A stretch of 32,000 nucleotides of DNA from Halomicronema hongdechloris C2206 (GCF_002075285.3 NZ_CP021983.2:4050001-4082000); one strand, 5' to 3'; numbered from the stretch's first letter, positions 1,907 to 24,003 are shown. A program made the numbers and translations. Notes: generated by a model from the letters alone, not told the origin.

Positions 1907-1940
1907 GCAGCTTTAACATCTACGCAGCTTTAACATCTAC
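1907..1940. repeat. Perfect 17-bp tandem duplication GCAGCTTTAACATCTAC x2 at the 3' end of IS630 orfB
   Basis: Read directly: 1907-1923 is identical to 1924-1940. Either copy yields the same protein end ...YVDVKAA*. Confidence 0.9.
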
Positions 1941-2573
1941 ATAGTGAGTGGAGTGGCCATTTTTCTCCCCCCTGTCTTCTAAGCCAATAACAACGTTGTA
2001 CGCCAGTTCTGCTTCACACTCAAACATCTGTCCAACCAGTTCATCGCGCTTGAGGTGCTGCCATTCCCCTTCAATGGGATTCATCTCTGAGCAATACGAG
2101 GGCAAGAAAAAGATATAGAGTCCCTGAGCTTCCCATTCAGCCCAGTGCTGTCGGGTCACCTGACTGGTGTGAATGGAGCCATTATCTTGCACAATCACGC
2201 GAATACGCCCGGTCTTGTCATACTCCGTCGCCGCATCTTTAGCCTGACCGGTGAGCATCGCGATATAGTCCTCACTCTTGAAGGAGCCAAACACGAGCCC
2301 ATAAATAAAGGTGATAAAGGGCTGCCATAGCCCCAAAATACTCAGCCGTCGTCCCCGCTTTTTCCTCTGTTCCTGGCGGTTTTGCTGACCGCGAAAATAG
2401 TAGCTGTAGCTGACGGGGCTCCACTGGCAGCAGCCTGACTCATCCAGATAGAACAAGTCAATGTCACCTGCTGCGGCAGCCAACTCCAGCATATCCAAGT
2501 CGGCTTGCTTGAGCGCTCGTTGGAGCGGGTCCTGACGCTCACGATGACTGTGGCGAGTGCGCTTCCAGATCAC
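1920..2573 (-). CDS. IS630-family transposase orfB (DDE catalytic part), probably fused to orfA by a -1 frameshift
   Basis: The ORF contains ...LFYLDESGC..., ...VIVQDNGSIHTS... and ...FFLPSYCSEMNPIEGEWQHLK.... This is the DD(34/35)E-type layout typical of IS630/Tc1. It has no plausible start of its own. Confidence 0.7.
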   Translation of the reverse strand: MIWKRTRHSHRERQDPLQRALKQADLDMLELAAAAGDIDLFYLDESGCCQWSPVSYSYYFRGQQNRQEQRKKRGRRLSILGLWQPFITFIYGLVFGSFKSEDYIAMLTGQAKDAATEYDKTGRIRVIVQDNGSIHTSQVTRQHWAEWEAQGLYIFFLPSYCSEMNPIEGEWQHLKRDELVGQMFECEAELAYNVVIGLEDRGEKNGHSTHYVDVKAA

Positions 2574-2980
2574 CCCCTTTTTTTGAGCACCTGCCGTAGA
2601 TAGTCAGGACTCAGATGAATGCGGCGCTCTTGTTCTAATTTTTCGGCCAATTGTGGACTCGTATACGTGCGTTCGTCCACTTGCAAGACTTGCTCGATGT
2701 ACACCATGTCTGCCTCTTGCCATCGGCGACGTTTTCCCCGACCGGGGGCTTCCCATAACCCACCTAATCCACCTGCCTGCCAGCGGTGTAGCGTTTTGCG
2801 AACCATCTCCACGTGCCAATTGAAAAAGGCTGCAATCATCTCAACATAGTCTCCCCGAGCATTCATGCGCATCACTTGGGCTCGGTCTTTGACCCGTTGA
2901 GGGACAGTCGTCGCTCGTTGCAGTTCTCGCAAGGTGCGATCTTCCTCGGGTGTCAGAAAGACCCGTAGTTGCATTCCCAT
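2570..2980 (-). CDS. IS630-family transposase orfA (helix-turn-helix part)
   Basis: ORF MGMQLRVFLTPEEDRTLRELQRATTVPQRVKDRAQVMRMNARGDY...LRQVLKKRG. It ends inside an A7G run that overlaps orfB. The start could be 2980 or 2974. Confidence 0.7.
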   Translation of the reverse strand: MGMQLRVFLTPEEDRTLRELQRATTVPQRVKDRAQVMRMNARGDYVEMIAAFFNWHVEMVRKTLHRWQAGGLGGLWEAPGRGKRRRWQEADMVYIEQVLQVDERTYTSPQLAEKLEQERRIHLSPDYLRQVLKKRG

Positions 2981-3440
2981 GACGCCCCCACCTGTCAAGC
3001 TACAAGTTGCAAACCTAAGCATACCTCGATGTTTTTAGCACGGGCTACTTATCAGAAACGCGCCTATCAATTGGAGTTCACAATACGGACGTATGAGTAT
3101 GTGCCGGACTAGTTTTGTCAGTCAACCAGGACCTGGAGTCATATTAGATTGATTCAATCTATCTATTGTACACTTTTGGGTACTATACAAGATTTGTACA
3201 TGGTTATTAGTATAAGAAGGTAATTAATTGTTCTTCTACTTTGCAGCAAAAAGCTCTTTTAGCTTTTTAAACCGATTGACTACTTACGTTCACTGCTGTT
3301 TGCATTTACATAAGAGGCAAGCTGTATTTATCTGTTTTTTGAAATTTTGTTACTTGAGTAGAATTGAGAATTATCGTAATAGTATTTTGAGCTAAACAAT
3401 TTTTAGTGTCGTTTTTTGTAATATGTGATTGGAAAAGAAT

Positions 3441-4280
3441 ATGAGCCAAATAAAAAAACTAAATCGATATAAGCAGAAGGTAGCATTGGGATTTGATCTA
3501 GCAGCTGCTGACTATGAGTCTCATTCCTTACGATATCTGCCAGACTGTGCAAACCATTTAGTTAAATTGGCAAAAATGCAAAGCGGGCAAAAGATTTTGG
3601 ATGTTGCAACTGGTACAGGCTTTGCGGCCCTTGCTGCGGCAAAATCTGTTGGGTCTACAGGTAATGTAATAGGGATTGACATTGCTAAAAATATGCTGGA
3701 AAAGTCGCAAGAAAATATAGAAGCTATGGGCTTTAAAAATGTAGAAATGCATGTGGGAGATGCTGAATCCCTAAATTTTAAAAATAATGAATTTGACGGG
3801 GTAATCTGCGCTTCTGGTATTTTTTTTCTTTCTGATGTAGTTGCTGCACTCCAAGAATGGAGACGGGTCACTAAAGAAGGAGGGTTTGTATCTTTTTCGA
3901 GTTTCGATCAAATAGCCTTTAAGCCCATGTTAGAACTGTTATTAACACGCCTTCAAAAACACTGTGTTTCAATGACAATGCCAGTTCCTGCCAAACAGAT
4001 TGATTCAACTGAGAAGTGTTATGACTCACTAAACAGTGCAGGGTTTGAAAAGATTGAAATACAAACTCAACAGCTTGGCTATTATCTCAATAACGTATAT
4101 GAGTGGTGGAACATAGTGTGGAACAGCGGTTTTAGATTCTATGTTTCACAACTGCCACCTGAAAATCTAGAGTTATTTAAAAAAGAACACCTTGCAGAAA
4201 TAGAAACTTATACCACAAAGCAAGGGATTTGGTTTGATGTTGAGACCATATTTGCTAAGGGTTTTAAAGAGACAGTATAG
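3441..4280 (+). CDS. Class I SAM-dependent methyltransferase (Methyltransf_11/UbiE-like)
   Basis: Motif I is ILDVATGTGFAALAAA, with an acidic post-I GIDIA and motif II/III FDGVICASGIFFL. The ATG at 3441 is preferred over the TTG at 3429. The gene is AT-rich. Confidence 0.8.
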   Translation: MSQIKKLNRYKQKVALGFDLAAADYESHSLRYLPDCANHLVKLAKMQSGQKILDVATGTGFAALAAAKSVGSTGNVIGIDIAKNMLEKSQENIEAMGFKNVEMHVGDAESLNFKNNEFDGVICASGIFFLSDVVAALQEWRRVTKEGGFVSFSSFDQIAFKPMLELLLTRLQKHCVSMTMPVPAKQIDSTEKCYDSLNSAGFEKIEIQTQQLGYYLNNVYEWWNIVWNSGFRFYVSQLPPENLELFKKEHLAEIETYTTKQGIWFDVETIFAKGFKETV

Positions 4281-4460
4281 CAATCATACAGAAAACCGTT
4301 CTCTAATTTTGTTTTGTTGTTTATTATCGATGTAAAAATTTAATACTGAAAATTAGGATCAATTAACTGATTTAGCTTATTCTGAAGCTTTTAAATTTTG
4401 GACATACAACATACGAAGAACCGACGAAGTTCTGACTTTTAAAAACTTTCAACGAAACAG

Positions 4461-5780
4461 ATGTATAATAGTTTGCACCAGCTTCGCGAAAAAATTTTGC
4501 ACTCTACTTGCAAAATAGGAGTTGTTGGTCTGGGATATGTTGGATTACCATTTGCTGTTGAAAAAGCAAAAGTAGGGTTTTCGGTGATTGGGGTGGACCG
4601 AAATTCAAAACGGGTAGCATGGGTCAACCAAGCCCATAACTACATTAAAGATGTCAAAGACTATGAATTAAAGCGCGTTGTAGAAAGTGGCTATTTTAAA
4701 GCAGAGGAAAGCTTTGGGCGTTTGTCTGAAATGGATGTCATCGTTATTTGTGTGCCGACCCCTCTTACTGAAGATTTAACCCCAGATATCAGCTATATCG
4801 AGGAAGTTACTCAAGAAATTGCCAAGCGATTGCGTCCTGGACAACTTATTTCCTTAGAATCAACTACTTATCCTGGCACAACAGATGAAGTAATATGCCC
4901 TATTCTTGAGCGCTGTAGTGGGCTTAAGCGAGGGAAAGATTTCTTCTTAGCCTATTCTCCCGAAAGAATCGATCCAGGTAATCAGCGCTACACAACAAAA
5001 AACATCAATAAAGTGGTAAGTGCTTCTGATGTTCACTCTCTAGAAGTTGCAACATTGTTCTACCAACAAACTATCGAAACTATTACCACCATCAGCAGTT
5101 CCAAAGTAGCAGAACTTTCGAAAATTTTCGAAAACACCTTTCGAGCAGTAAATATTGCTCTGGTGAATGAACTTGCTATGCTATGTGATCGTTTAGATAT
5201 TAATGTCTGGGAAGTGATAGATACCGCCAACACAAAACCATTTGGAATTATGCCTTTCTATCCGGGTCCTGGGGTAGGTGGTCACTGCATTCCAATTGAT
5301 CCCCATTATTTAAAATGGAAAGCTAAAGATGTCAACTTCAATGCCCGCTTCATTAACTTCGCCAGCGAAATTAATCGTCAGATGCCTTCTTTTGTCAAAA
5401 ATAAGGCATTTTCAATCCTTGATCGATTAGGAATAGCACCTTCCGTGTCCCGCTGTTTTATTTTGGGGGTGACCTACAAAAAAGACCTGCCTGACTTGAG
5501 GGAATCTCCCGCGATTTCAATCATCAAATTACTTCTAGAAGAGAAGGTTGTGGTGTCTTACTATGACCCATATATTCCTAAATTAGAAGTTGGAGAACAT
5601 TCCTTCAAAAGCACTTCTTTGACGGCAGAAAACCTCTCCTTTATGAATCTGGTCATCATCACCACTGACCATAGCCAGGTGGACTATGAAGCAGTGGTAA
5701 CCCATGCCCCTTATGTACTAGACACACGAGGGATAACTCGTCATCTAAATTGCGCTGGCGAGAAGGTAACAATGTTATGA
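4461..5780 (+). CDS. Nucleotide-sugar 6-dehydrogenase (UDP-glucose/GDP-mannose dehydrogenase family, UDP-HexNAc dehydrogenase-like)
   Basis: N-terminal Rossmann motif IGVVGLGYVGLP; ICVPTP; catalytic-Cys motif GPGVGGHCIPIDP; C-terminal UDP-binding-type domain (GVTYKKDLPDLRESPA). Confidence 0.85.
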   Translation: MYNSLHQLREKILHSTCKIGVVGLGYVGLPFAVEKAKVGFSVIGVDRNSKRVAWVNQAHNYIKDVKDYELKRVVESGYFKAEESFGRLSEMDVIVICVPTPLTEDLTPDISYIEEVTQEIAKRLRPGQLISLESTTYPGTTDEVICPILERCSGLKRGKDFFLAYSPERIDPGNQRYTTKNINKVVSASDVHSLEVATLFYQQTIETITTISSSKVAELSKIFENTFRAVNIALVNELAMLCDRLDINVWEVIDTANTKPFGIMPFYPGPGVGGHCIPIDPHYLKWKAKDVNFNARFINFASEINRQMPSFVKNKAFSILDRLGIAPSVSRCFILGVTYKKDLPDLRESPAISIIKLLLEEKVVVSYYDPYIPKLEVGEHSFKSTSLTAENLSFMNLVIITTDHSQVDYEAVVTHAPYVLDTRGITRHLNCAGEKVTML

Positions 5781-6883
5781 AACCAATCGTTTCTACTATG
5801 AATAGAGCTGTTAACCTCATGGATTTTGAGTCCATTGCACGAGAATGTTTATCGCAGCCTATCTGGAATTACTTCGCCAGCGGCGCTAACGACGAAATCA
5901 CACTGCGTAACAACCGTGAGGCATTTTCTCGTATTAATTTATACTACAAAGTTCTAGTGGATGTAAACGAGTGTTCCTTACAGACGCAGATTCTGGGTCA
6001 AAAAAATTCTATACCGATACTTATAGCACCTTTGGCGTTTCATAAACTAGCTCATCCCGATGGCGAGATGGCTACTGCTCGTGCTGCTGGCGCACAGGGT
6101 ACAATCATGATTCTAAGTACCATGAGCACGACACCAGTTGAAGAAGTAGTTGCTAATGCATCAGGCCCTATCTGGTTTCAGCTTTACATTTACAGAGACC
6201 GTGCGGTTACTAAAGCACTCGTCAAACGAGTAGAAGCAGCTGGTTGCTCAGCATTGGTATTGACTGTCGATGCTCCAGTAATGGGGCATCGCGAACGTGA
6301 TATTCGCAGCGGAGTAGATTTATTTGCTGAACTTCAACTAGAAAATGTGTTCGCCATGGACGTGTACAAAACTTCCGAAAATACGCGCAACAAAAACATG
6401 GCAGAACATTTTGCGTCACTTTTCGACCCTTCAATTACTTGGAAGGATATCGAGTGGTTGCGTTCGCTCACCAAGCTACCAGTTATCGTTAAGGGTATCA
6501 TTCGCGCCGATGATGCACAACACGCTGTGTGTAGTGGCGCCAGCGGTATTATTGTTTCCAACCACGGAGGGCGTCAACTCGATACAGCACCAGCTACTAT
6601 TGACGCACTGTCGCCTATCGTCGAATCAGTAGGCAAAAGTGCAGACATCTTCCTCGATGGTGGTATCTTACGAGGTACCGATGTTATCAAAGCATTAGCA
6701 CTTGGTGCTAATGCTGTCCTTATTGGTAGACCTGTACTCTGGGGATTAGCAGTAGGTGGCACTGAGGGGGTAGAGCACATATTCAAAATCCTACGCAATG
6801 AAGTCAATTTGGCTATGGCTTTGTGTGGTTGCCCGACAATAGCCGACATCAAATATGACCTGTTACGACCAAAAAATCGCTAG
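5777..6883 (+). CDS. FMN-dependent alpha-hydroxy-acid oxidase/dehydrogenase (glycolate / lactate / hydroxymandelate oxidase family)
   Basis: The family signature SNHGGRQLD is present. Also seen: AFSRI...LGQKNSIPILIAPLAFHKLAHPDGEMATARAA, LTVDAPVMGHRERD and DGGILRGTDVIKALALGA. The ATG at 5777 overlaps the upstream TGA (ATGA), which suggests translational coupling. Confidence 0.85.
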   Translation: MKPIVSTMNRAVNLMDFESIARECLSQPIWNYFASGANDEITLRNNREAFSRINLYYKVLVDVNECSLQTQILGQKNSIPILIAPLAFHKLAHPDGEMATARAAGAQGTIMILSTMSTTPVEEVVANASGPIWFQLYIYRDRAVTKALVKRVEAAGCSALVLTVDAPVMGHRERDIRSGVDLFAELQLENVFAMDVYKTSENTRNKNMAEHFASLFDPSITWKDIEWLRSLTKLPVIVKGIIRADDAQHAVCSGASGIIVSNHGGRQLDTAPATIDALSPIVESVGKSADIFLDGGILRGTDVIKALALGANAVLIGRPVLWGLAVGGTEGVEHIFKILRNEVNLAMALCGCPTIADIKYDLLRPKNR

Positions 6884-7016
6884 TAGCTACTAGTTAAGTA
6901 ATAGCTTTCATCAGAAAGAGGTTTTGAGCTGAATAGACAGCGTCTTCAGTATAAATTATTATTGTAACCTTCTTTGGTAATCCGAAAAATTCATTACGTA
7001 ATAGAATATTGTTCAT

Positions 7017-7178
7017 ATGATAGAACATACTCAACGACGAGACGGTGAGCTAATAGATCTTGGAATAGGACGACCTGATTTTGCGCTTCTTCCTCTTGCA
7101 GAACTCCGAAAGGCTTCTGCACACCGATTTTCTCTAATAGATACAAGCTGTCTTCAGTACTCGCCAGAAGCGGGTCGT
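7017..7178 (+). pseudogene. Class I/II PLP aminotransferase, N-terminal 54 codons (gene split by an IS)
   Basis: MIEHTQRRDGELIDLGIGRPDFALLPLAELRKA...LQYSPEAGR. The reading frame then runs into the IS inverted repeat. Confidence 0.7.
7170..7178. repeat. Target-site duplication GCGGGTCGT (left copy)
   Basis: An identical 9-mer sits at 8344-8352, immediately outside the IS inverted repeats. Confidence 0.85.
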
Positions 7179-8343
7179 GGGAGCATCTCATTTTTGCGAG
7201 AACCCAGCATCTGTGCTGAGATGAAAGGGTAGTCTCTACCCCAAAAGCTCTTGTCCCCCGAAGACCAAGCCGCCTTAGCCCAGCATAGCCGCGAGATTGC
7301 CAAGATTCTGCATCGCAATAGCCCTCCTGAAGCCGTTGACACACTTGAAGGCATTGAAACGACGGTGCGGCAGCAGATGCTGGAGCACGTCAGTCCCGAA
7401 GTGGGAATTTTTTTGTCGAAGCGTGCACCCAAACCCAACGGGGACGCCCCCGGCAGCTAAAAAGTGTTCTGGGGACCCTCCCGATTCGGGAACAGCAAGC
7501 CCAGCGGTTGGGCCTCGAACCCCACGGTCGTCTCAGCCCGCTCTTTGAGAAATGTGCGTTGCGGGTTGCGGCCTGCCAAAGCTATGGGAAAGGCGAAACC
7601 GACGTGTCCGTTTTAACGGGGATGTCGTTGAGTCATTCAACGCTGCAACGCCTCGTGCAACGCCAACGTGAGACCCCACCGGAGGCGAAGCAGACGGTCA
7701 CCGAGATCAGTGTCGATGGCGGTAAAGTGCGCCTGCGGCATCCGGAAAAAGGCGAACCCAGTTACTGGAAAGAATACAAGAGTGCTCGGGTCGAGAATCT
7801 GTACTATGGGGCGGCGTTTCAGGCAAATGACTGGCTGCAAGACTGGCTAAATAGCCAACCGTTAGCGAACCCCATCATCTGCCTTGGCGATGGGCATCGG
7901 GGCGTCTGGGCGGTGTTTCGTCCCATCGCCACCGTGGAAACCCGTTTAGAAATTCTCGATTGGTACCACTTGGTCGAAAACCTCTATGGAGTTGGGGGCT
8001 CATTAAAACGGCTGAAACAAGCCAAAGCTCTGTTATGGGAAGGGCGGGTTGATGAAACCCAGGCGTTATTTACCGACTGCGCTCTGGAGCAAGCCCGGCG
8101 ATTCTGTGATTACTTGGAGCGACATCGTCACCGAATTGTGAATTACGGCTATTTTCAAGCTGAACAAATCTGTTCGATTGGCTCAGGTGCAGTTGAGTCA
8201 GCCATCAAGCAGATTGACCATCGCATGAAACTCCCAGGCGCTCAATGGGTGCCCGACAATGTTCAGCAAGCCTTGCAGGTGCGATGTGCCTATCTGAATA
8301 GAGCCTACGATTGTTGATGTTTTTGCAACTTTGAGATGCTCCC
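7179..8343 (+). mobile_element. 1165-bp GC-rich insertion sequence (ISKra4-family-like) interrupting the aminotransferase gene
   Basis: Inverted repeats: left GGGAGCATCTCATTTTTGCGAGAAC; reverse complement of the right end GGGAGCATCTCAAAGTTGCAAAAAC (12 perfect terminal bp). There is a 9-bp direct repeat, an internal transposase, and GC-rich composition unlike the flanking island. The family call is from memory (GGG ends, 9-bp duplication, C-terminal SGAVESAIKQI...PGAQW motif). Confidence 0.7.
7251..8317 (+). pseudogene. IS transposase, read in two frames (frameshift near 7436-7450)
   Basis: Frame A is 7251-7460 (SPEDQAALAQHSREIAKILH...GIFLSKRAPKPNG). Frame B, from about 7442, runs GRPRQLKSVLGTL...LGDGHRGVWAVF...DWYHLVENLY...IGSGAVESAIKQIDHRMKLPGAQW...*. 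Whether the shift is a mutation or programmed cannot be decided from the sequence. Confidence 0.6.
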
Positions 8344-8352
8344 GCGGGTCGT
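8344..8352. repeat. Target-site duplication GCGGGTCGT (right copy)
   Basis: Identical to 7170-7178. Confidence 0.85.
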
Positions 8353-9324
8353 CCTTCACTACGCGGGCATCTCGCAGACTTTCTCACCCGCCATTACGGT
8401 TCTGTGGTACGTCCTGAGAGACTTTTTTTGACTGCTGGTGCATCACATGGACTTGACCTCATTTCAGGATGCTTTGCGCAACCTGGAGATACGGTATTTG
8501 TTGAGGCTCCAACATACTTCTTAGCACTCAAAATACTCCAAGGGAGGAACTTACGCATTGTATCGGTTCCAACTGATTCTGATGGACTCGATGTAGTTGC
8601 TTTAGAACATTTGCTGGAGATGGAGAAACCAGCATTTCTCTACACAATTCCTGTACATCACAATCCAACAAGTGTCACGCTATCAGTGGTAAGGCGAAGG
8701 AAGTTAATAGAGTTGGCTGAAAAACACAAATTTTTCATCATAGCCGACGAAGTTTATCAACTTCTTAACTATAATGGATATACTCCGAGCCGATTGGCTG
8801 CTTTCGATGATAGCAGAGTCATATCTTTAGGGTCATTCTCAAAGATACTTGCTCCTGGGTTACGGCTTGCTTGGATTGAGACAGAACCGAAGCATTTTTC
8901 TGTACTTGGCCGATGCGGCGTTATCAAAAGTGGTGGTGGCGTCAATCCATTTACTTCAGCGATTGTCGAAAGCGCGATTACACTTGGGCTACAAGATTCT
9001 TATCTAGAGCGCGTACGTAAGGTTTATAGCCAACGGTGTGCTCATATGATCCAAGTCCTTGATCATGTACTTCCTAAAGTAGTAGGTTTTACAAAACCGA
9101 AAGGAGGGTTCTTCGTGTGGCTAAAACTTCCGCAATATATTGATAGTAAGGAGTTACTCGCAGAGGCTCAGATACTCAAAATTGGGTTTCGTCCTGGTTC
9201 CCTCTTCTCGCAAGAAGAAGGTTTCACAAATTTCTTGCGGATTTGTTTCGCTTATTACAATGAAGCTGAAAGCGAGTGGGCCTGCAAGCAACTCGGACGT
9301 TTATTTTCTAGTCATTTACAATAA
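8353..9324 (+). pseudogene. Class I/II PLP aminotransferase, C-terminal 323 codons
   Basis: In frame from the duplication: (AGR)PSLRGHLADFLTRHYGSVVRPERLFLTAGASHGLDL..., HHNPTS, IADEVYQ, and the PLP-lysine motif SFSKILAPGLRLAW. The family looks like aromatic / 2-aminoadipate / kynurenine aminotransferases. Confidence 0.8.
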
Positions 9325-9358
9325 TTCCCACCTTTACTATCGACTTAGTTAATATCAA

Positions 9359-11578
9359 ATGAAAAATTTATTGCCCGTTGAAACATTACTTGCTGAACTT
9401 GGCGCTTTTGGCAAACTGCCCAAAAATAATGTTTTTCATAGAGAATGGACTCAAGAAAACCAGGAGCAAGACTTCAAGACTGCATTGAACAGTCCACTTT
9501 TCGCTCTTCACAAAACTTCTGATGTTAACGACATCGAATCTATCCAAATTGACGACGCACGGCGAGTTTTACGTTTGAAACGGCAGATAGCGTCTTGGAT
9601 CGTAGAGTACGCTGAACTAATCGGTGGAGTCGAGTGGGCTCGCTTATCGCATCAGAGCGAAATCCAAGAAAAGGCTGAACTAATCGCGACCCAATCGCTC
9701 GAAACGAAAGCTGAGATTCTGAGACTGCAAAGAAGAATTGTCAAACGATTTATTGATGGTAGAAGAAACTACTTTGAGCGAGAACAGTCAGCATCCTTCG
9801 ATGAAATCGAAGCAATGGCTAAGGAAAAACGCGAAATTTTCATTATCATAAAATTTATGGACGAAGCACCTCATATAAGGGCTACTTTGAAATCCTTAGT
9901 GAATCAAAAGTCCATAGACATGGAACGTGTCGTAATCGTCGCTGTCGATAATAATTCGACAGATGGCTCAGATAAAATTGTCAAGCTTGTTATTGCCGAA
10001 AACACAAGCAGAGCACGCATAATATATACGAATCAACCGATATCTGGAGGTGGGAGTGCTGCTCGATTTGGTGTAGATCGCATCATTTCAACTATCTATG
10101 AAATGTGCCTCCACGATAATGATTGGGAACGGTTGGAGCGAGCTATAATCGCTGTGTCTGACGGTGATACGGTGTATCATCCTCAGCTACTGGCAGATAA
10201 CGTTGCTATCTTAAATACAGATTCGACTGTGGATGGCGTTATGCCGTTCTTGACCTACAAGTATACGGCTGCTTTACGACTCTTTGCTAAATACACATCC
10301 AGGTTTTCTGAAGACTTGCGACCTCACGCCAATTGCGCCAAAGCTGTGGCTGTCCCTGTTGATCTTTCTACAATAGAAGCTTACATCCAGATACCGCGAC
10401 ACCAGAGGAGAGTGATAGATGATGAAACAATAGAATTGATAATTATTGACCGAGAAGGAGTTGAAACAATTCGAATCGTTAAACTGAATAATCGCGACGC
10501 TCTGGGACGCAAATTTGCCGCTCTCATAGACAATGAAGGACACCTCGCTTACGTCTTGTCGAACCGCACAATCGTTCTTGACGAAGCTCCAGTATCAGGG
10601 ACAGATGCCGCACTTGTTTATTTGGAAAACGATAGCGTGAAGGAAGATGAAAAGTGGCGCTGGCACGCGGTAATCGGTCACGATTTATTTCTAAGTTGGG
10701 CATTTGAAGAAATGGGGCTACCAGAAGAGAGCATTTTCCCAGATACTAGCGATGCATTAAAGATGTTTCGCGTTTGGAGTTTTGCAGTCGGCGGTCAACA
10801 CCAACTAAAGAAACCTGATTTGAATATCGTTACTGGTACGGACTATCAATCGGGTCGAGTCTTGCAGGCAGTTGGTAATGTAATTCGCCTTGGACCAGCT
10901 CATGCATACTCCGAGACCGAGATTGATCGATTGATTAAGATGATCCGTAATTTTGCAAAGGGGCAAAGTGTTTTCTACGGCGAAACCAGAAGCTCGAATG
11001 TTGAAAGAGCAAGTGGGCTCTATTTGCACATGACCCGCATTCAAAATGCGGTCGAAAATGAAGTACGCAACTTCTCTGAAGACTTCTTCAGAGAGGTTGT
11101 TTTCCCAGAAAGGATTATTTTTCCCCTGCGATGGATACTACAGAATGCTGTACGTTTCTATGCACACAAGGAACCATGCGCAAGAGATATTGTAGAACAA
11201 CGAGTGCTAAATACTATATTTTCTCCAGAAACCGTTGTACAAATTAAACAGAAATGGATTACAGAGACAACCATTGCAACGATTAGAAGTGTGGAGTACA
11301 TAAACAAACAGAAGCAAGCTGAGAAAACTGCAGAGGGTATTATAAAAGAGCATTATCGAGAAATAATGTCCTTTTATAAAAAGACGCTACAATCTTTTTT
11401 CGATGCCTATCAGATAGAGCCTCAGCATTATTCTTGGTTGCTCGAAGGCGTAGAGCAGTCGAGAAATGCCCTAGTTGAAGATCTCCCCCGTGTCCATCCT
11501 TCGGCAGTCTGGCAAGGCAAGGAATTTGTTATCGATAACGCTAGAGGGCAGGTCTTAAAATTTTATTCTTCTAGTTAG
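9359..11578 (+). CDS. Large (739 aa) uncharacterised protein with an embedded GT-A (family-2-like) glycosyltransferase core
   Basis: An uninterrupted AT-rich ORF. Residues about 170-290 read IFIIIKFMDEAPHIRATLKSLVNQ...VAVDNNSTDGSDKIV...AVSDGDTVYHP, which fits the GT2 layout (NxxxxL..SL.NQ, DxxSxDGS, DxD). The roughly 170-aa charged/coiled N-terminus and roughly 440-aa C-terminus match nothing I recognise. Confidence 0.7.
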   Translation: MKNLLPVETLLAELGAFGKLPKNNVFHREWTQENQEQDFKTALNSPLFALHKTSDVNDIESIQIDDARRVLRLKRQIASWIVEYAELIGGVEWARLSHQSEIQEKAELIATQSLETKAEILRLQRRIVKRFIDGRRNYFEREQSASFDEIEAMAKEKREIFIIIKFMDEAPHIRATLKSLVNQKSIDMERVVIVAVDNNSTDGSDKIVKLVIAENTSRARIIYTNQPISGGGSAARFGVDRIISTIYEMCLHDNDWERLERAIIAVSDGDTVYHPQLLADNVAILNTDSTVDGVMPFLTYKYTAALRLFAKYTSRFSEDLRPHANCAKAVAVPVDLSTIEAYIQIPRHQRRVIDDETIELIIIDREGVETIRIVKLNNRDALGRKFAALIDNEGHLAYVLSNRTIVLDEAPVSGTDAALVYLENDSVKEDEKWRWHAVIGHDLFLSWAFEEMGLPEESIFPDTSDALKMFRVWSFAVGGQHQLKKPDLNIVTGTDYQSGRVLQAVGNVIRLGPAHAYSETEIDRLIKMIRNFAKGQSVFYGETRSSNVERASGLYLHMTRIQNAVENEVRNFSEDFFREVVFPERIIFPLRWILQNAVRFYAHKEPCARDIVEQRVLNTIFSPETVVQIKQKWITETTIATIRSVEYINKQKQAEKTAEGIIKEHYREIMSFYKKTLQSFFDAYQIEPQHYSWLLEGVEQSRNALVEDLPRVHPSAVWQGKEFVIDNARGQVLKFYSSS

Positions 11579-11674
11579 AGGTCGAGCCAGAGGTCGCCTT
11601 CTGATAGGAGAGCGTCGCTAAATAAGGTAGTGAAACAAAAATCTGCGGTAGATCTAGCGAAGCTGTCATGAAAG

Positions 11675-11713
11675 GCAATCTAACTCGAAATCATTGTTCT
11701 GCAAGGGTTTCAA
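11675..11713 (+). repeat. Copy A of a ~40-bp dispersed repeat (GCAATCTAACTCGAAATCATT...AGGGTTTCAA)
   Basis: It aligns by eye with 14254-14293 (GCAATCTGAACTTGAAATCATT...TAGGTTTTAG) in the same orientation. The two copies bracket the amidinotransferase relic and trpBA. Confidence 0.6.
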
Positions 11714-11876
11714 AATTGGTTTTAAGCGATCGCCAGAGAAGTTTATTTTTGCAATTTTTGGATAGTTTATGAAAAATTGTGATATTTTTTCGAGAACTAA
11801 AATCAATAAAAAATATATACTGCAATAGTCTTAGAGATTATAGATCGAAAGCTATTTTCATCATCTTAAACACTAA

Positions 11877-12065
11877 AAGCTGCAATATTTTCTACAATTG
11901 CCCCTCATGATAACACTGGCTAGTTTTATCCCAATTAAAGAACTGGAACGATATAAAATTGATGTTATTCCCTTGAGTTTACGCCACGCTAGGACTCTCG
12001 GCGGAAGATTTTACTGCGTCACATTAGATGTGAGAAGAAAAGGCTCACTCGAATCCTATGTCTGA
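11877..12065 (+). pseudogene. Amidinotransferase (AGAT / CyrA / SxtG-type), C-terminal relic only
   Basis: The open frame after TAA 11874-11876 reads [62 protein letters not shown]. The end resembles the conserved amidinotransferase C-terminus, which I recall as ...[22 protein letters not shown]. The upstream ~300 codons are absent. Confidence 0.6.
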
Positions 12066-12193
12066 TTATCTCTTTTTTGTCATAGTAGAATCAAATTTTC
12101 TCTGAGTGACAAAAGCGTCTCACTCTTGAGAAAAACAGTCTATATTTATGCAAAGTTTAGCATCCATAACATAAATAGAAATTTCAAATAATC

Positions 12194-13396
12194 ATGACAG
12201 AACAACAATTCAACAAATTACCCGACCAAAATGGCTATTTTGGTAAATATGGAGGGCGTTTTGTACCAGATACCTTGATGGAACCACTGATACAACTTGA
12301 AAAAAACTATTATTCTTTAAAGGGTGATGAGAATTTTCAAAGAGATCTATTACATTTTCAAAAAACCTTTATAGGGAGACCAACTCCTCTATATTTCGCA
12401 GAAAATCTTTCACGGAAAGTAGGTGGCGCGAAAATATATTTCAAGAGAGAAGACTTAGCACATACAGGTGCACACAAAATTAATAATGCCATTGGTCAGA
12501 TTCTTCTTGCCAAATATATGGGCAAAAAGCGAATTGTTGCTGAAACGGGCGCAGGGCAACATGGCGTAGCAACAGCGGCAGCTTCTTCAGTACTCGTTTT
12601 AGACTGCTTAGTCTACATGGGTGAAAAAGATATGGAAAGACAACAGCCCAATGTTGAACGTATGCGATTGATGGGAGCAGAGGTTCAGGCTGTTGAATCA
12701 GGCTCGCGGACTTTAAAGGATGCAGTGAGTGAAGCAATGCGCGATTGGGTAACTAACATTGATGATACTTATTATTTATTAGGATCGTCATTAGGACCAC
12801 ACCCCTATCCCTTAATTGTCCGAGATTTCCAAAAAGTTATAGGTATAGAGGCTAGGAAACAAATTATGGAGGTGGAGACGCAAATGCCAGCCGAAGTTAT
12901 CGCCTGTTTGGGCGGAGGAAGTAATGCTATTGGTATTTTTTATGGATTTATGGAAGACGATGTAAAGCTGATTGGGATTGAGGCAGGAGGGTCTGATATA
13001 TCTCCTGGTCAGCATGCTGCTAGATTTTCTGGTGGACGTATTGGTATTTTTCAAGGAATGAAGACATTCGTCTTGCAGGATCAAGAAGGACAAATTGAAT
13101 TAACGTCAAGTATTTCGGCAGGTTTAGATTATGCAGGAGTTGGTCCTGAGCATGCTAACCTCTTGGATAAAGGACGTGCAAATTATCTCTATGTAAATAA
13201 TGTAGATGCTATGGAAGCATTAAAAATACTTTGTAAAGAAGAGGGCATTATTCCTGCTCTCGAATCAGCGCACGCAATAGCTTATGTACTTAAAAAAGCT
13301 AAAGAATATGATAGGTCGCAAAGTCTTATTGTAAATCTTTCAGGTAGAGGCGATAAAGATGTGAGTATAATCCAAGACTGGAAATTTAAAAAATGA
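12194..13396 (+). CDS. trpB: Tryptophan synthase beta subunit
   Basis: [12 protein letters not shown], the PLP-lysine motif [27 protein letters not shown] and [11 protein letters not shown]. It is full length at 400 aa. Confidence 0.95.
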
Positions 13397-14190
13397 GAAC
13401 TATTCGTGATTCTATTAAAGAAAAAAATAGAGATGGCTATACTGCTTTAGTACCGTATATTCTGCTTGCAGATCCTGATTTTGAAACGACAAAGCAAGTA
13501 ATTTTCGCTTTGTCTCGTACAGGCTGTACAGCAATTGAACTTGGACTTCCCTTCACCGATCCAATAGCTGATGGGCCAGTAATTCAGAAAGCCACAGAGC
13601 GAGCTCTTAACAAAGATATTTCGCTGAAATTAATTTTTCAATTTATTTCAGATTTGAGGAAGGAAGGGTTAAAAATCCCTATTGCAATATATACATACAG
13701 TAACTTGGTTTATAATATTGGGTACGATAGTTTTTGTAAGGAAGCAATAAAAGCGGGGATACAAGGAGTCCTAATTGTTGATCTTCCTCCAGAAGAGGCT
13801 CATGAGTTTATGAATGTAAATTCTCAAGATTCTTTGGAAACTATATTTCTTTGTTCTGCCACTACAAGCGAAGAACGTCTCCCTAAAATCAATAGTGCAT
13901 CAACAGGATTTACCTATTATGTTGCTCAAAAGGGAGTTACTGGAATGCGGGAGTCTTTACCAGACGGATTAACTGAAAAACTTACTAAATTACGTGAATA
14001 TATTACTACTCCGCTTGCCGTTGGTTTTGGTATATCAAAACCTAAACACGCAAAGGCTCTTGCCCCTTATGCAGATGCTATCGTTATAGGAAGTGCGTAT
14101 GTTAATATGTTTGAATCATATCAAGGACGTGAACTTGTTGAAAAGATAGAGTCCTTTACAACTTCTATTGTATCTGAACTTAAAAAATAA
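13393..14190 (+). CDS. trpA: Tryptophan synthase alpha subunit
   Basis: [17 protein letters not shown] (catalytic Glu/Asp region), YYV...GVTG and GFGIS. The ATG overlaps the trpB stop (ATGA). Confidence 0.9.
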
Positions 14191-14253
14191 ACGTTGTTAA
14201 TAGTGGATTTACAGCTGCGACATGGTGAAAAACTAGGGTTGGTGTCACCAGAC

Positions 14254-14293
14254 GCAATCTGAACTTGAAATCATTACAGGCTATAGGTTTTAG
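14254..14293 (+). repeat. Copy B of the ~40-bp dispersed repeat
   Basis: See 11675-11713. It lies at the AT-rich to GC-rich transition. Confidence 0.6.
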
Positions 14294-14430
14294 TCTCTAA
14301 CTCATGGGAACTGGGCAGTGGGAAGTTCTCTGTCCGGTAGCGAGACGGTAAGGAAAACGGACATGGGCTGAGTCAACTGACCCATCATGTCCGAAACTGG
14401 CTGATATAAAGCGTTTCAGCCAGTACTATT

Positions 14431-14801: not shown

Positions 14802-16556
14802 GAGCCGACATTCCGCAGGTTGACAGGGAATAAAAGATGTGGAGTGGTCTAGGCTAGAAACCGTTGCTTCTGGCGGTGTCATCCTCCCTTGCAGATTGAA
14901 AATTTAGACCATCTGGGTTTAGTGGCCGGTCTTATCGATGAACTTGGCCTGGTTGAACTGAGCGATGACCTGATTGAGCCCCATTGCTTAGAGCACGTCA
15001 GTGCTGGCCAAGTGGTGAAAGCGATGATTTTGAACGCCCTGGGGTTTCTCAGTGCCCCGTTGTACCTGTTCAGCGAGTTCTTCGAAAGTAAAGCCGTGTC
15101 TCATTTACTGGGAGAGGGGGTTGAGGCCCATCACTTGAATGATGACCGCTTGGGGCGTGTCTTGGATGACCTCTAGGAGGCGGGCACCACCTCATTTTTT
15201 ATGACCGTGGCGCTACAGGCGGTCAACCGATTTGAGATTGACATTCAGCAGCGCCATCTCGATGCCACCTCTATCGCGGTGGAGGGTGAGTATCAGATCG
15301 CCTCCGAGGTCGAAGCGGAAGCCACGCCTGAGTCAGAGCCCCTAAGTGAGCCCTCAGCAGAACCGACCCCGATTCGACTCTGCCGAGGGTACTCCCGAGA
15401 TCACCGCCCGGATTTGAAACAGTTTTTGATGACCCTGGTGTGTGCCGCTGACGGCGGCGTGCCCTTGTGGTTGAAGGTGGCCAGTGGCAATGAGCACGAC
15501 AGTCAGCAGTTCGCGAGTGTAGTGACGGAATTTAGCCAACAGTGGACCAGCGACGGCATCGTTGTCATGGATGCGGCCTTCTATAATGAAGCGAATCTGC
15601 AGCAGCTGGGCTCTATGGGGTGGCTGTCGCGGGTCCCCCTAACGCTGAAAGCCGCTCAAGACCTGGTACATCGCGACGTCACCACACTGAGTGAAGTCCC
15701 CTGCAGCCTGAAGGATTACCGACTGTGGGAGGTGGAGTCGACCTATGGTGGGGTGCCTCAGCGCTGGATTCTGGTCGAAAGCCAGACCCGCAAAGCCGAT
15801 GCCGCCCTCTGGCAACCGGAACTGGAGAAGCTAGAACGCAGGCTCAATCACCAATTGAAATCGCTCAGCCAGCAGACCTTTGCCTGTAAACCCGATGCCT
15901 TAGAGGCCTTGATGCAGTTTCAAGACCGTCTGGAGGTGCATCAGCTCACTCAGGTTTCGGTTCAGACCGTGCGGGCGAAACGCGCCCCCGGTCGTCCGGC
16001 CAAATCCGCCGAGGCCACCCCCGTTCAGGGGTATCGTCTCCAGGCCACCTTGGAGCGCACCACCACCGCCGAAGAGACCTTTAGCCGACAGCGCAGCCGC
16101 TTCATTCTCGCCACGAATCAGCTGGATAATACCCTCTGGCCCGCCGAGAAACTCCTGAGCGAATACAAAGGGCAACAGACCGTGGAGCGAGGCTTTCGCT
16201 TCCTCAAAGACCCCCTCTTCTTTGCCAGTAGCGTCTTTGTCAAAAAGTCCCAGCGAGTTGAAGCCTTGGCCCTGATCATGGCCCTCACCTTGATGGTCTA
16301 TACGCTCGCCGAACGGAAGACTGGACGCCCAGCACCAAACGGTGCGGAACCAACGCAAACAGCCCACCGCTAAGCCCACCTTTCGCTGGATTATGCAGAA
16401 GTTTCAAGGCATTCACTGGGTCAAGCTGGAGGGGCAACGGCAGATTAGCAATCTCAATGATGAGCGGCGACTGATTATTCACCTCTTGGGTCCACCCGTT
16501 GAGCGCTATTACTATGCCCCTGGTTAATTATTTGTCAACCTGCGGAATGTAGGCTC
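14802..16556 (+). mobile_element. IS1634-family (IS4 superfamily) insertion sequence, 24-bp terminal inverted repeats
   Basis: Left end GAGCCGACATTCCGCAGGTTGACA; reverse complement of the right end GAGCCTACATTCCGCAGGTTGACA (23/24). No flanking direct repeat was recognised. Confidence 0.7.
14889..16527 (+). pseudogene. IS1634-family transposase, inactivated (in-frame TAG 15174-15176, frameshift near 16320-16345)
   Basis: IENLDHLGLVAGLIDELGL..., CRGYSRDHRPDLKQFLMTLV (a hallmark of the family), and VVMDAAFYNE. The C-terminus continues in another frame (RNQRKQPTAKPTFRWIMQKFQGIHWV...). Confidence 0.7.
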
Positions 16557-17474: not shown

Positions 17475-18395
17475 ATGATGCTAGCAGGGGTCAGCTTACC
17501 ATTAGCCCTCATGCCCCACGGGTCCTGTTTTTTCTGGGATCCTTGGCTTACGGCCTTGCATGTCGTGGCAGATGCTGGAGTGGCCTTAGCCTATTTCTCG
17601 ATTCCGCTGCTGTTATTTCTCTATAGAGACCGGGCAGCAGCAACGACACAGCCCTTGTTGCTCTTGTTTGCGGCCTTCATTTTGAGTTGTGGCCTAGGCC
17701 ATGGCTTTAGAATCTGGAATATCTGGCATGCCCACTATTGGCTAGAAGGGAGCTGGATGATGGTCACGGCTATGATCAGCCTCTATACGGCCTGGGAGTT
17801 GAAGCAGGTGATGCCGCTGTTGTTGTCGACCCAGAAAGATTTGCTCGATACTCAACAGTTGTTAGAAAAAGATGACCTGACGGGAGTAGCCAATCGTCGT
17901 GGCTTGGAGACGGCGTTTCAACGGTTAGTATTGCAATCGGTTGAGCCAGAGTTAGATCATGCACTACTACTCTTGGATTTGGATGATTTCAAACAGGTGA
18001 ATGATACCTATGGCCATGGGGTTGGAGATCTCTTGCTGCGGTTGGTGGCGGAAAAATTATGCGATCGCACCCGTTCCCTCGACACAGTGGTGCGCCTAGG
18101 AGGGGATGAATTTGCCATTCTGCTGGCGGGCTGTTCCCTAGCTGGGGCAAATTTAATTGCCCAGGATATTCGACGGGCCATGACCAGCATTCGATTGCCG
18201 ATGCAGGAGCAAGAGCCGTCTCAGCGATTCCAGGTAACAGCCAGTATTGGCATTGCTCCCATCCAGCCAGTTATGCCCCTGGGGCAATGCTATGACCAAG
18301 CAGACCAAGCGCTCTACCAGGCAAAACGCAGGGGCAAAAACCAGATCGCAATAGTCTCTTGCCAGACCCAGGCACCCCAGGTACAGGGTCTATGA
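17475..18395 (+). CDS. Membrane-bound diguanylate cyclase: ethylene-binding-domain-like 3-TM N-terminus fused to a GGDEF domain
   Basis: The N-terminus has ADAGVALAYFSIPLLLFLY and FAAFILSCGLGHGFRIWNIWHAHYW. I recall the plant ETR1 / Synechocystis SynEtr1 equivalents as AYFSIP and CGxxH. The C-terminus has LTGVANRRG, DLDDFKQVNDTYGH and RLGGDEFAILL, with an RSLD I-site five residues upstream. Confidence 0.75.
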   Translation: MMLAGVSLPLALMPHGSCFFWDPWLTALHVVADAGVALAYFSIPLLLFLYRDRAAATTQPLLLLFAAFILSCGLGHGFRIWNIWHAHYWLEGSWMMVTAMISLYTAWELKQVMPLLLSTQKDLLDTQQLLEKDDLTGVANRRGLETAFQRLVLQSVEPELDHALLLLDLDDFKQVNDTYGHGVGDLLLRLVAEKLCDRTRSLDTVVRLGGDEFAILLAGCSLAGANLIAQDIRRAMTSIRLPMQEQEPSQRFQVTASIGIAPIQPVMPLGQCYDQADQALYQAKRRGKNQIAIVSCQTQAPQVQGL

Positions 18396-22557: not shown

Positions 22558-22959
22558 TCAGCGCACGGCTCGCATGCCGGCGGTAGCAGGGTCAAATCCT
22601 GCTGGAAGTTGAGTCTCATCAGGGTCATAGTCGGCAGCTTCCACATTGGCTCCCGTCAAGTTAGCATCCCGGAGGTCGGTGCCAATTAACATGGCTCCCC
22701 GCAGGTCGGCATGGCTAAAGTTAGCCTGGCGCAGTATGGCGTAGCTGAGGTCAACTCCGCGCAGATTGGCCTGGCTGAAGTTGGCCTGGCTGAGGTCGCT
22801 ATAGCTGAGATCACTCCCTTTGAGAATGACATGACTGAGATCAGCGCCGGTGAGGGTGATACCGCTCAAGTATCGCTGCCCGGCGGCATAGGCTTGGCGC
22901 AGGGCAGCTGCAGTGTTAATGGCAGCAGGATGAGAGGCAGACATACTAGCGTCCTGCAA
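22558..22959 (-). CDS. Pentapeptide-repeat protein
   Basis: Consecutive A(D/N)LXX quintets: GADLSHVILKGSDLSYSDLSQANFSQANLRGVDLSYAILRQANFSHADLRGAMLIGTDLRDANLTGANV. Confidence 0.85.
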   Translation of the reverse strand: MQDASMSASHPAAINTAAALRQAYAAGQRYLSGITLTGADLSHVILKGSDLSYSDLSQANFSQANLRGVDLSYAILRQANFSHADLRGAMLIGTDLRDANLTGANVEAADYDPDETQLPAGFDPATAGMRAVR

Positions 22960-23121
22960 ATCGTCGAGGTCATTCTCAGCATACCGCTGCCCTCGCCCTT
23001 GGGGTATCCATGGCCCAGTAGTGGCCTGGCTTCGGTCTGGATGTCGAGGCCATGGGGGTGTCGTTTATGCTGGGATAGATGGTTGCTGCCGTGTTGTATT
23101 CCGAGGTCTGAGGTTTCGTTA

Positions 23122-24003
23122 ATGGCTGCTGCAATGAAGACCCTTCCTACCTGGACCATTCGCGATCGCATCTTCCGCTGGGGCTCGCGCACCTATCTGA
23201 TGGGCATTCTCAATGTCACCCCCGACAGCTTCAGTGACGGTGGCCAGTTCGACACCGTAGAGGCTGCCCTAGCCCAGGCCCAGCGGTTGGTGCATGCTGA
23301 CCTCGACATCCTCGATATTGGCGGCCAATCGACCCGACCTGGGGCGGCAGAGGTCTCGGTCGGTGAGGAGATAGAGCGGGTGATTCCAGTGATTGCAGCC
23401 CTACGAGCCCATAGCGATCCGGCCCTGCAGACCATTCCCATTTCCGTAGATACGACTCGGGCTCAGGTGGCCCGGGCGGCGATTCGAGCCGGGGCCGATC
23501 TGGTCAATGACATCTCGGGCGGGACCTTCGATAGTGCCATGCTGTCGACGGTCGCCGATCTGGGGGTGCCCATCGTCTTGATGCACATTCGCGGCACCCC
23601 AGCCACCATGCAGCAATACACCGATTATGAGGATGTGGTCGGCGACATTGCTCGATTTTTGCGGCGTCAAATCGACGATGCGATCGCAGTGGGCATCGAT
23701 CCCAGTCACATTGCCATTGACCCTGGCATCGGCTTTGCCAAGAGTTATCCCCAAAATATAGATGTTTTGCAGCGTCTACGGGACTTACAAGCCCTGGGCT
23801 ACCCCCTATTGGTGGGGCCGTCTCGCAAGAGCTTTATTGGCTGGATTCTCGATCAGCCCGATCCACAGCAGCGGCTGTGGGGAACGGCGGCAGCCTGTTG
23901 CGCGGCCATTGCCCATGGAGCCGATATGCTACGAGTGCACGATGGCCCCGAGATGCGGGATGTCTGCCGTGTCGCTGATGCCATTTGGCGCCGCAGGTTT
24001 TAG
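23122..24003 (+). CDS. folP: Dihydropteroate synthase
   Basis: GILNVTPDSFSDGG, DIGGQSTRPG, SVDT, NDISGG and GIGFAK motifs. The start is 23122 or 23134. The supplied ORF start at 22711 is an artefactual upstream extension that overlaps the pentapeptide gene. Confidence 0.9.
   Translation: MAAAMKTLPTWTIRDRIFRWGSRTYLMGILNVTPDSFSDGGQFDTVEAALAQAQRLVHADLDILDIGGQSTRPGAAEVSVGEEIERVIPVIAALRAHSDPALQTIPISVDTTRAQVARAAIRAGADLVNDISGGTFDSAMLSTVADLGVPIVLMHIRGTPATMQQYTDYEDVVGDIARFLRRQIDDAIAVGIDPSHIAIDPGIGFAKSYPQNIDVLQRLRDLQALGYPLLVGPSRKSFIGWILDQPDPQQRLWGTAAACCAAIAHGADMLRVHDGPEMRDVCRVADAIWRRRF

Follow-up and report, generated by a model that had tools for sequence, protein, structure and literature searches.

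A foreign island of Halomicronema hongdechloris C2206 and its probable fragments of two uncharacterised small-molecule cassettes

Gene content and composition of the island

The DNA considered here is a 32,000-nucleotide window of the genome of Halomicronema hongdechloris C2206 (GCF_002075285.3, NZ_CP021983.2:4050001-4082000; positions are counted from its first letter), in which seven genes follow one another on the plus strand: a methyltransferase, a nucleoside diphosphate (NDP)-sugar 6-dehydrogenase, a flavin mononucleotide (FMN)-dependent 2-hydroxy-acid oxidase, an aminotransferase interrupted by an insertion sequence (IS), a glycosyltransferase (GT) of the GT-A fold, and the two chains of tryptophan synthase, TrpB and TrpA, the latter pair preceded by the relic of an amidinotransferase (Table 1). 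A sequence-only reading had described these genes as one operon with a tryptophan-based chemical logic. As an observation this was partly confirmed: all seven genes lie where it had placed them and belong to the families it had named, as verified with Pfam and NCBIfam, both ATGA overlaps (5777-5780, 13393-13396) and the gap of 34 nt at 9325-9358 are exact, and the block has a biosynthetic character, with no characterised cluster found to match it. The short or overlapping junctions ascribed to it occur at three of the six boundaries, but the others measure 180 nt (methyltransferase to dehydrogenase), 133 nt (oxidase to aminotransferase) and 615 nt (GT-A gene to TrpB). The interpretation placed upon the genes was also supported in part. 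Comparison with related loci indicates that the island probably consists of fragments of two independent, uncharacterised small-molecule cassettes, termed A and B below, together with an unrelated methyltransferase, both cassettes being damaged in this strain.

Table 1. Features of the two cassettes, of the island that holds them and of its flanks, by position in the window
Feature	Position	Strand	Basis or remark
NDP-N-acetylhexosamine 6-dehydrogenase-like enzyme, cassette A	4461..5780	+	PF03721/PF00984/PF03720; TIGR03026 1.3e-122
FMN-dependent 2-hydroxy-acid oxidase (lactate/glycolate oxidase-like), cassette A	5777..6883	+	PF01070 2e-139
Aminotransferase, 5' part, before the IS, cassette A	7017..7178	+	rejoined to 8353-9324: open frame of 377 aa
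ISKra4-family IS inside the aminotransferase	7179..8343	+	NF033572 5e-72; 1165 bp
Aminotransferase, 3' part, class I/II, KAT-II/LysN/MppQ-like, cassette A	8353..9324	+	PF00155
Soluble 739-aa GT-A-fold protein, cassette A signature enzyme	9359..11578	+	PF00535, weak
Non-coding junction between cassette A and B remnants	11579..11906		328 nt, 35% GC; no coding similarity detected
C-terminal relic of StrB1-like amidinotransferase, cassette B	11907..12065	+	about 52 of about 348 aa
Tryptophan synthase beta chain TrpB, intact, cassette B	12194..13396	+	TIGR00263 1.5e-178
Tryptophan synthase alpha chain TrpA, intact, cassette B	13393..14190	+	TIGR00262 3e-73
Solitary class I S-adenosylmethionine methyltransferase (UbiE/ArsM/PEAMT-like)	3441..4280	+	Pfam, NCBIfam
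Compositionally foreign low-GC island	3050..14300		GC, GC3 and HIP1 counts
IS630-family transposase, two overlapping ORFs, left flank	1920..3022	-	PF13358 and helix-turn-helix domains; NF033545
IS1634-family transposase, split into two ORFs, right flank	14889..16373	+	NF033559, 1e-19 and 3e-74
GC, guanine-plus-cytosine content; GC3, GC at third codon positions; ORF, open reading frame; aa, amino acids.

The region between 3050 and 14300 is horizontally acquired, foreign DNA, bracketed by IS elements in H. hongdechloris. Its GC content is 36-46%, as against about 55% in the flanks, GC3 ranges from 0.22 to 0.40 per gene, as against 0.58-0.67 in host genes, and the 11-kb island holds one HIP1 octamer where 17.5 kb of adjacent host DNA holds eight. 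That single octamer (GCGATCGC) is found at 11726, inside the non-coding junction between the cassette remnants; HIP1 sites are absent from L001, L032 and L033, three related loci described below. Typical cyanobacterial genes, PsbQ and FolP among them, lie to the right in the window at a GC content of about 55-60%, and on the left side of the island an IS4-like fragment accompanies the IS630-family element. No transfer RNA genes were detected in the window, an Rfam scan of the island revealed neither riboswitch nor leader, and promoter and terminator predictions were at or below chance level.

Cassette A and its relatives

Genes 4461-11578 appear to be the four-gene core of a rare, phylogenetically widespread cassette, which was defined from about 20 loci in Actinobacteria, Proteobacteria and Acidobacteria (in the high-GC loci, all-against-all ORF clustering was confounded by long spurious stop-free frames, and its groups were relied on once representatives had been checked against Pfam). 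Conservation is best seen in the closest relative, a metagenomic locus (L001) encoding GerE, the dehydrogenase, the FMN oxidase, the aminotransferase, the GT-A protein and LysE. Identities to the window are 70-76% (71% for the dehydrogenase, 70% for the rejoined aminotransferase and 76% for the GT-A protein), order and spacing are the same, including the ATGA overlap between dehydrogenase and oxidase, and LysE is directly 3' of the GT-A gene. L001 is devoid of an AGAT-type amidinotransferase and of an esterase. The window thus retains the GT-A family member, the adjacent FMN oxidase, the NDP-sugar 6-dehydrogenase and, split by the IS, the aminotransferase. Absent from it are the variable partners of the cassette (AGAT-type amidinotransferase, Abhydrolase_3 esterase and p161, a small protein resembling diadenylate-cyclase (DAC) domains) and a dedicated exporter of the LysE, BenE, EamA or MFS type, no exporter ORF being present between 3050 and 14300.

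The signature enzyme of the cassette is the GT-A protein, 100% identical to XM38_038500 of H. hongdechloris C2206. Among its 89 homologues (40-76% identity) Actinobacteria predominate, other hosts being Burkholderia, Halomonas/Vreelandella, Marinobacter, Azospirillum, Zoogloeaceae and Acidobacteria. The family is very small and sharply delimited: only 17 of 1.84 billion 50%-identity representatives match at E<=1e-30, and beyond them follow generic GT2 domains at about 1e-7. A metagenome scan returned only an Angelobacter-type locus, and a plasmid search a single Azospirillum replicon, without annotation. Family members are 670-740 residues long and share the invariant motifs KFMDE.PH, DNNS.D.S and SDGDT. 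The three signature positions of the GT-A fold are invariant, namely the acidic residue following beta-1 (in KFMDE), DNNS.D.S, and the DxD motif within SDGDT (DGD, residues 268-270). No transmembrane segment was found in the protein. Its AlphaFold (AF2) model has a predicted local distance difference test score of 87 and a predicted template modelling score of 0.90, and in a Foldseek search with this model solved structures matched the nucleotide-binding GT-A core only, about 150 residues; sequence and fold searches of the PDB yielded nothing beyond this generic core.

The remaining enzymes were also compared with solved structures. For the dehydrogenase the closest solved structures are the UDP-ManNAc dehydrogenases 4r16 and Cap5O. 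The FMN oxidase, the most constant neighbour of the GT-A gene across the loci, had been likened in the sequence-only reading to the Hmo enzyme of hydroxyphenylglycine biosynthesis. This likeness was not supported, as L-lactate oxidase (7f22, 9e-126) and glycolate oxidases (about 1e-105) are closer to it than 4-hydroxymandelate oxidase (3.5e-82). The aminotransferase matches PDB entries 1x0m, 3aov, 2egy, 8tn2 and 2zc0, its nearest groups being KAT-II/LysN/MppQ and alanine:glyoxylate aminotransferases; the top NCBIfam model is that of MppQ, with a score under its cut-off. As had been proposed, excision of 7179-8352 restores an uninterrupted reading frame for this enzyme. The inserted element ends in perfect inverted repeats of 12 bp (GGGAGCATCTCA), has duplicated a 9-bp target (GCGGGTCGT, at 7170-7178 and 8344-8352), and has a host-like GC content of 54.5%. 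Its transposase occupies two reading frames, of about 75 and then 269 residues, compared with the 422 positions of the family profile, and no second copy is found within the window; it may be a defective or a frameshift-dependent copy.

Fuller versions of the cassette are found elsewhere, with AGAT-type amidinotransferases, Abhydrolase_3 esterases, the small DAC-like protein and LysE, BenE or EamA exporters as partners. In Dactylosporangium vinaceum (L026) the order is VioC/GntD-like hydroxylase (TauD), FMN oxidase, aminotransferase, GT-A protein, AGAT, esterase, dehydrogenase and LysE, and in Burkholderia gladioli (L027) AGAT, p161, FMN oxidase, aminotransferase, GT-A protein, esterase, dehydrogenase and LysE. 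The AGAT, a 377-392-residue protein without a Pfam hit, is assigned to its family by matches to human AGAT (1jdw, 3e-76) and SxtG (2e-66), and is 71% identical between actinomycete and Burkholderia. Three metagenomic proteins of about 1070 residues (P0034, P0042, P0044) consist of an N-terminal GT-A part fused to a C-terminal AGAT-type amidinotransferase, and because such natural fusions exist it can be argued that the two enzymes serve the same metabolite. Proteobacterial variants have a class IV aminotransferase in place of the class I/II enzyme and possess a BenE transporter, suggesting that it is the transamination and export functions that are conserved. Several actinobacterial variants contain an additional adenylating enzyme and an LCM-type O-methyltransferase, and in one Streptomyces locus the GT-A protein, esterase and FMN oxidase directly follow a non-ribosomal peptide synthetase (NRPS) of 4497 residues. 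Such loci, with an uninterrupted aminotransferase and a full AGAT, include neither TrpBA nor the methyltransferase.

Further observations concern single members of these loci. The p161 protein (about 160 residues; L027 7139-7624, also in L014, L017, L018, L020, L021, L023, L025 and L028) has no Pfam or NCBIfam hit, and matches the structure of PanS (37jy, E 3.5e-10), the minimal synthase with a diadenylate-cyclase domain of the Panoptoo anti-phage system; a DAC-like nucleotidyltransferase is unexpected within a biosynthetic-looking cassette. The hydroxylase heading the D. vinaceum version (L026 6720-7721) is a GntD/VioC-like Fe(II)/2-oxoglutarate arginine or enduracididine beta-hydroxylase (NF041363, 385 bits, over the cut-off), and hints at arginine-derived chemistry in some variants. 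In a Paraburkholderia leaf symbiont (L028/L022, CALNWN010000017) cassette A is pseudogenised, with the aminotransferase, esterase and dehydrogenase each split and the FMN oxidase reduced to a fragment; decay of the cassette is seen here for a second time, in a symbiont with a reduced genome.

Cassette B and the solitary methyltransferase

The genes at 11907-14190 are best read as the 3' remnant of a different recurrent cassette. In locus L032 (594-5790) a PF00155 aminotransferase, a PRMT-like methyltransferase and a 348-residue StrB1-like amidinotransferase (L032_X348) are followed by TrpB and TrpA. The closest homologue of L032_X348 (60% identity) lies on a 24-kb contig (sample 3300059473) in the order aminotransferase, PRMT-like methyltransferase, amidinotransferase, APH-type kinase, TrpB and TrpA. 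The window relic, in which the catalytic Cys motif is kept, shares 74% identity with the C-terminal end of L032_X348 (43 residues, E 1.5e-20), and as this is the enzyme preceding TrpB-TrpA in that cassette, relic and TrpBA together would correspond to its 3' end. TrpB and TrpA themselves are 69% and 62% identical to the L032 copies behind the amidinotransferase, the spacing between amidinotransferase and TrpB is 128 nt in the window and 102 nt in L032, and TrpB and TrpA then overlap in both. The nearest relatives of TrpB are found in contigs and alphaproteobacterial metagenome-assembled genomes (65-73% identity), and are not cyanobacterial housekeeping genes. An intact amidinotransferase, a PRMT-like methyltransferase and an upstream PF00155 aminotransferase are missing here; the methyltransferase and aminotransferase that the window does encode show no similarity at E 1e-3 to their L032 counterparts. 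Amidination, N-methylation and phosphorylation, as encoded in this cassette, recall creatine/phosphagen-type and streptidine-type logic.

The relic also bears on the earlier suggestion that an amidino transfer once belonged to the pathway. The GT-A family does have an amidinotransferase as a true partner, and fusions with AGAT exist, but the relic is not of the cassette A type, sharing only 31-37% identity with those AGATs. GC3 likewise distinguishes the two blocks, with values of 0.28 (TrpB) and 0.22 (TrpA) as opposed to 0.35-0.40 for the cassette A genes.

The methyltransferase upstream of cassette A (GC3 0.31) finds only generic matches in the PDB, and tblastn searches of the approximately 20 GT-A loci detected no homologue of it, nor of the window TrpB or TrpA. 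Judged by this distribution, it belongs to neither conserved cassette.

Decay of both cassettes

Both cassettes are damaged in H. hongdechloris. The aminotransferase of cassette A is split by the IS and no exporter is found 3' of the GT-A gene, while in cassette B about 85% of the amidinotransferase is deleted and everything upstream of it is lost. A metagenomic contig of 2.6 kb (L033, JGI 3300022719) is 97% identical to window positions 11741-13530, and has lost 150 bp of the relic and acquired an IS1 exactly at the trpB/trpA junction, with trpA truncated. Homology begins at 11741, and the GT-A gene is therefore not directly upstream in this contig, which represents a sister lineage with a more eroded island. 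With its aminotransferase split, the amidinotransferase mostly gone and the exporter absent, the locus has probably become inactive. It is unlikely that either pathway functions in this strain, and TrpBA may at most survive as an accessory tryptophan synthase.

Proposed chemistry and alternative explanations

A mechanism for cassette A may be proposed from the family assignments of the dehydrogenase, oxidase and aminotransferase, and of the partners found elsewhere, an arginine-dependent amidinotransferase, an acetylesterase-like hydrolase and exporters of the amino-acid type. The dehydrogenase would generate an NDP-N-acetylhexosaminuronic acid, while oxidase and aminotransferase would convert a small 2-hydroxy acid to the 2-oxo acid and then to an amino acid; in the fuller versions the amidinotransferase would turn an amine into a guanidine. 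The GT-A enzyme would couple the sugar acid to the amino or guanidino aglycone, and the product would be exported. One concrete possibility would be the sequence glycolate, glyoxylate, glycine, guanidinoacetate. On the most economical reading of the gene families, then, the product may be a hexosaminuronic acid conjugated to a small amino or guanidino acid, itself derived from a 2-hydroxy acid, and exported in that form. Cassette B might provide amine formation, amidination, N-methylation of the guanidine type and, in one case, phosphorylation, alongside tryptophan synthase.

Several considerations weigh against the view of the island as two independent and damaged cassettes beside an unrelated methyltransferase. 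The chemical steps are based on family-level enzymology only, and cassette B was encountered just three times. TrpB shows a pN/pS of 0.22 relative to the 97%-identical L033 (27 substitutions), indicative of moderate purifying selection; as this selection persists, the TrpB part is not dead. Since L001 is also without AGAT and esterase, the four genes of cassette A plus an exporter may be complete in themselves, in which event the window copy may lack no more than the exporter and an intact aminotransferase. Finally, A and B, each associated with an amidinotransferase, may have been transferred together because they were functionally linked in the donor.

Another role for the cassette A genes lies in compatible-solute metabolism, in which the GT-A enzyme would glycosylate a small 2-hydroxy acid in the manner of glucosyl- or mannosyl-glycerate or -lactate synthases, and oxidase and aminotransferase would handle the same acid. 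GT-A enzymes with 2-hydroxy-acid acceptors exist. The constant proximity of the FMN 2-hydroxy-acid oxidase to the GT-A gene would agree with such a role, as would several halophilic or marine hosts (Halomicronema, Vreelandella, Marinobacter, Granulosicoccaceae). Most hosts are nevertheless soil actinomycetes, no sequence similarity to the GpgS and MGS families was detected, and a secreted specialised metabolite accords better with the dedicated exporters, the fusions to AGAT, the adenylating enzymes and the proximity of an NRPS, so that this explanation is considered unlikely.

Still less probable is a polysaccharide or lipopolysaccharide (LPS) modification locus, where a UDP-ManNAc/GlcNAc dehydrogenase and a GT2 enzyme would add a hexosaminuronic acid to a glycan. 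The dehydrogenase is indeed nearest to enzymes of the WecC/Cap5O type, and the GT-A core is similar to that of glycosyltransferases for hyaluronan, chondroitin and teichoic acid. This resemblance to known glycosyltransferases, however, extends over about 150 residues only, in a protein without a transmembrane segment, and neither the window nor the related loci that were read contain a flippase, polymerase, ABC exporter, initiating transferase or second GT. The constant partners are instead enzymes of the amino-acid type and exporters of the LysE, BenE and EamA classes, and one locus abuts an NRPS.

The original proposal, that all seven genes form one tryptophan-derived pathway of the indolmycin or beta-methyl-tryptophan type (TrpBA supplying the substrate, methyltransferase, aminotransferase and oxidase acting on indolepyruvate or indolelactate, and the GT adding a uronic acid), retains a slim chance at best. 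It draws on the common orientation of the genes in a shared low-GC island, and on the chemical aptness of aminotransferase and FMN oxidase for interconverting amino, keto and hydroxy acids. Against it, TrpBA and the methyltransferase accompany the GT-A gene in 0 of the approximately 20 related loci, relic and TrpBA fit another recurrent cassette, GC3 differs between the GT-A and TrpBA blocks, and the 615-nt non-coding junction separating these is homologous to neither cassette. The oxidase, moreover, is of the lactate/glycolate type, and the methyltransferase has generic matches only. Synteny thus appears largely to refute this proposal. The combination of tryptophan, amidino, methyl and 2-hydroxy-acid chemistry mixes parts of two unrelated cassettes with a solitary methyltransferase, and a unifying tryptophan-based logic is unsupported because TrpBA, methyltransferase and relic fall outside the GT-A cassette.

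Hardly credible, lastly, is an IS-driven juxtaposition of unrelated genes without any pathway, for although the surroundings are IS-rich on both sides, one IS lies within a gene and the mosaic of A, B and methyltransferase is truly a juxtaposition, the cassette A genes keep their order, spacing and ATGA overlap in L001 and recur across phyla, relic, TrpB and TrpA follow the order and spacing of L032, and this conserved synteny refutes it for both sub-blocks; dehydrogenase, FMN oxidase, aminotransferase and GT-A protein, which co-occur elsewhere, are not randomly juxtaposed.

The preferred explanation therefore remains that of two damaged cassettes and an unrelated methyltransferase. A bolder version of it is offered as a tentative and somewhat doubtful possibility: cassette A might represent a new class of exported natural products, in which a rare, soluble GT-A enzyme of about 700 residues, fused in some genomes to an arginine-dependent amidinotransferase, couples a HexNAc-uronic acid to a small acid of the amino, hydroxy or guanidino type, and cassette B a second new pathway combining tryptophan synthase with an N-methylated and possibly phosphorylated guanidine, both spread by horizontal transfer over at least four phyla, the Halomicronema island being a fossil of their co-transfer. 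For the present genome the outcome is deflationary: the seven genes are a mosaic of damaged fragments, unsuited to expression or assay as one unit, and in itself the window has modest interest. The lead consists of two orphan pathways, not one tryptophan-based pathway: two recurrent cassettes came to light for which no published function was found, and the pairing of GT-A protein and AGAT in particular is a reasonable natural-product lead. Cassette A is directly testable, being intact in the culturable B. gladioli, D. vinaceum and Vreelandella neptunia.

Two proteins encoded outside the island may be mentioned. The product of 17475-18395 joins an ethylene-receptor-like N-terminal domain (PF25487) to a GGDEF diguanylate cyclase domain, and may be an ethylene-responsive synthase of cyclic di-GMP. 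A protein of the dihydropteroate-synthase type (22711-24003) has its Pterin_bind domain at residues 164-410, preceded by an N-terminal extension of about 160 residues without assignment.

Comparison with known systems

No description of either cassette was found in the open-access literature searched, and established systems share individual elements with them. Polysaccharide and LPS loci differ from the island in all their defining features (flippase, polymerase or ABC exporter, initiating transferase, several GTs and membrane association). Pathways to indolmycin and beta-methyl-tryptophan feature an indolepyruvate C-methyltransferase and an aminotransferase, and in the case of indolmycin also an arginine-oxidising pyridoxal phosphate (PLP) enzyme and a ligase; the window methyltransferase, in contrast, never accompanies the other genes, and the island has no further ORF for a PLP oxidase or ligase. 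Extra trpBA copies occur within tryptophan-derived clusters, for example those of scytonemin and of the hapalindole type. Cassette B is akin to these in possessing a second, cluster-linked tryptophan synthase beside tailoring genes, but its PRMT-like methyltransferase, StrB1-like amidinotransferase and kinase match none of them. Pseudouridimycin, congocidine/pyrrolamide, enduracididine (MppPQR), guanitoxin, bulgecin and mycofactocin were considered and rejected on gene content. Mycofactocin biosynthesis (MftD and MftF) does offer a parallel in the use of an FMN_dh-family enzyme together with a GT2/GT-A enzyme acting on a small molecule. It departs from cassette A in that the island contains no MftA, MftB or MftC and no radical-SAM gene, the window FMN_dh protein scores 261 bits where the MftD cut-off is 470.85, and the glycosyltransferases are related in their GT-A core only.

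For cassette A a closer chemical parallel is the hydroxyphenylglycine pathway (Hmo and HpgT), where an FMN 2-hydroxy-acid oxidase and a class I/II aminotransferase likewise lead from 2-hydroxy acid through 2-oxo acid to amino acid. There are differences here too, since the oxidase is not nearest to Hmo, the island has no ORF for an HmaS-type dioxygenase, and in the related loci the oxidase/aminotransferase pair is tied to a GT-A protein, an NDP-sugar dehydrogenase and an amidinotransferase. In its full versions cassette A resembles the pathways to guanidinoacetate and related guanidines (AGAT, CyrA, SxtG) in possessing an enzyme of the AGAT family, although there is no fixed polyketide synthase or NRPS core in the cassette, its AGAT is fused or adjacent to the GT-A protein, and the window has no AGAT gene, its relic being of the StrB1-like branch. 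Cassette B, for its part, is reminiscent of the streptidine branch of streptomycin biosynthesis. It adds a PRMT-like methyltransferase and TrpBA to the scheme, neither an inositol dehydrogenase nor any sugar gene was observed in it, its aminotransferase is of the PF00155 family whereas StsC is a DegT-type aminotransferase, and in the window the amidinotransferase is reduced to its final 52 codons. What the two have in common is an aminotransferase, a kinase of the APH type (in one instance of cassette B) and a StrB1 or StrB1-like amidinotransferase.

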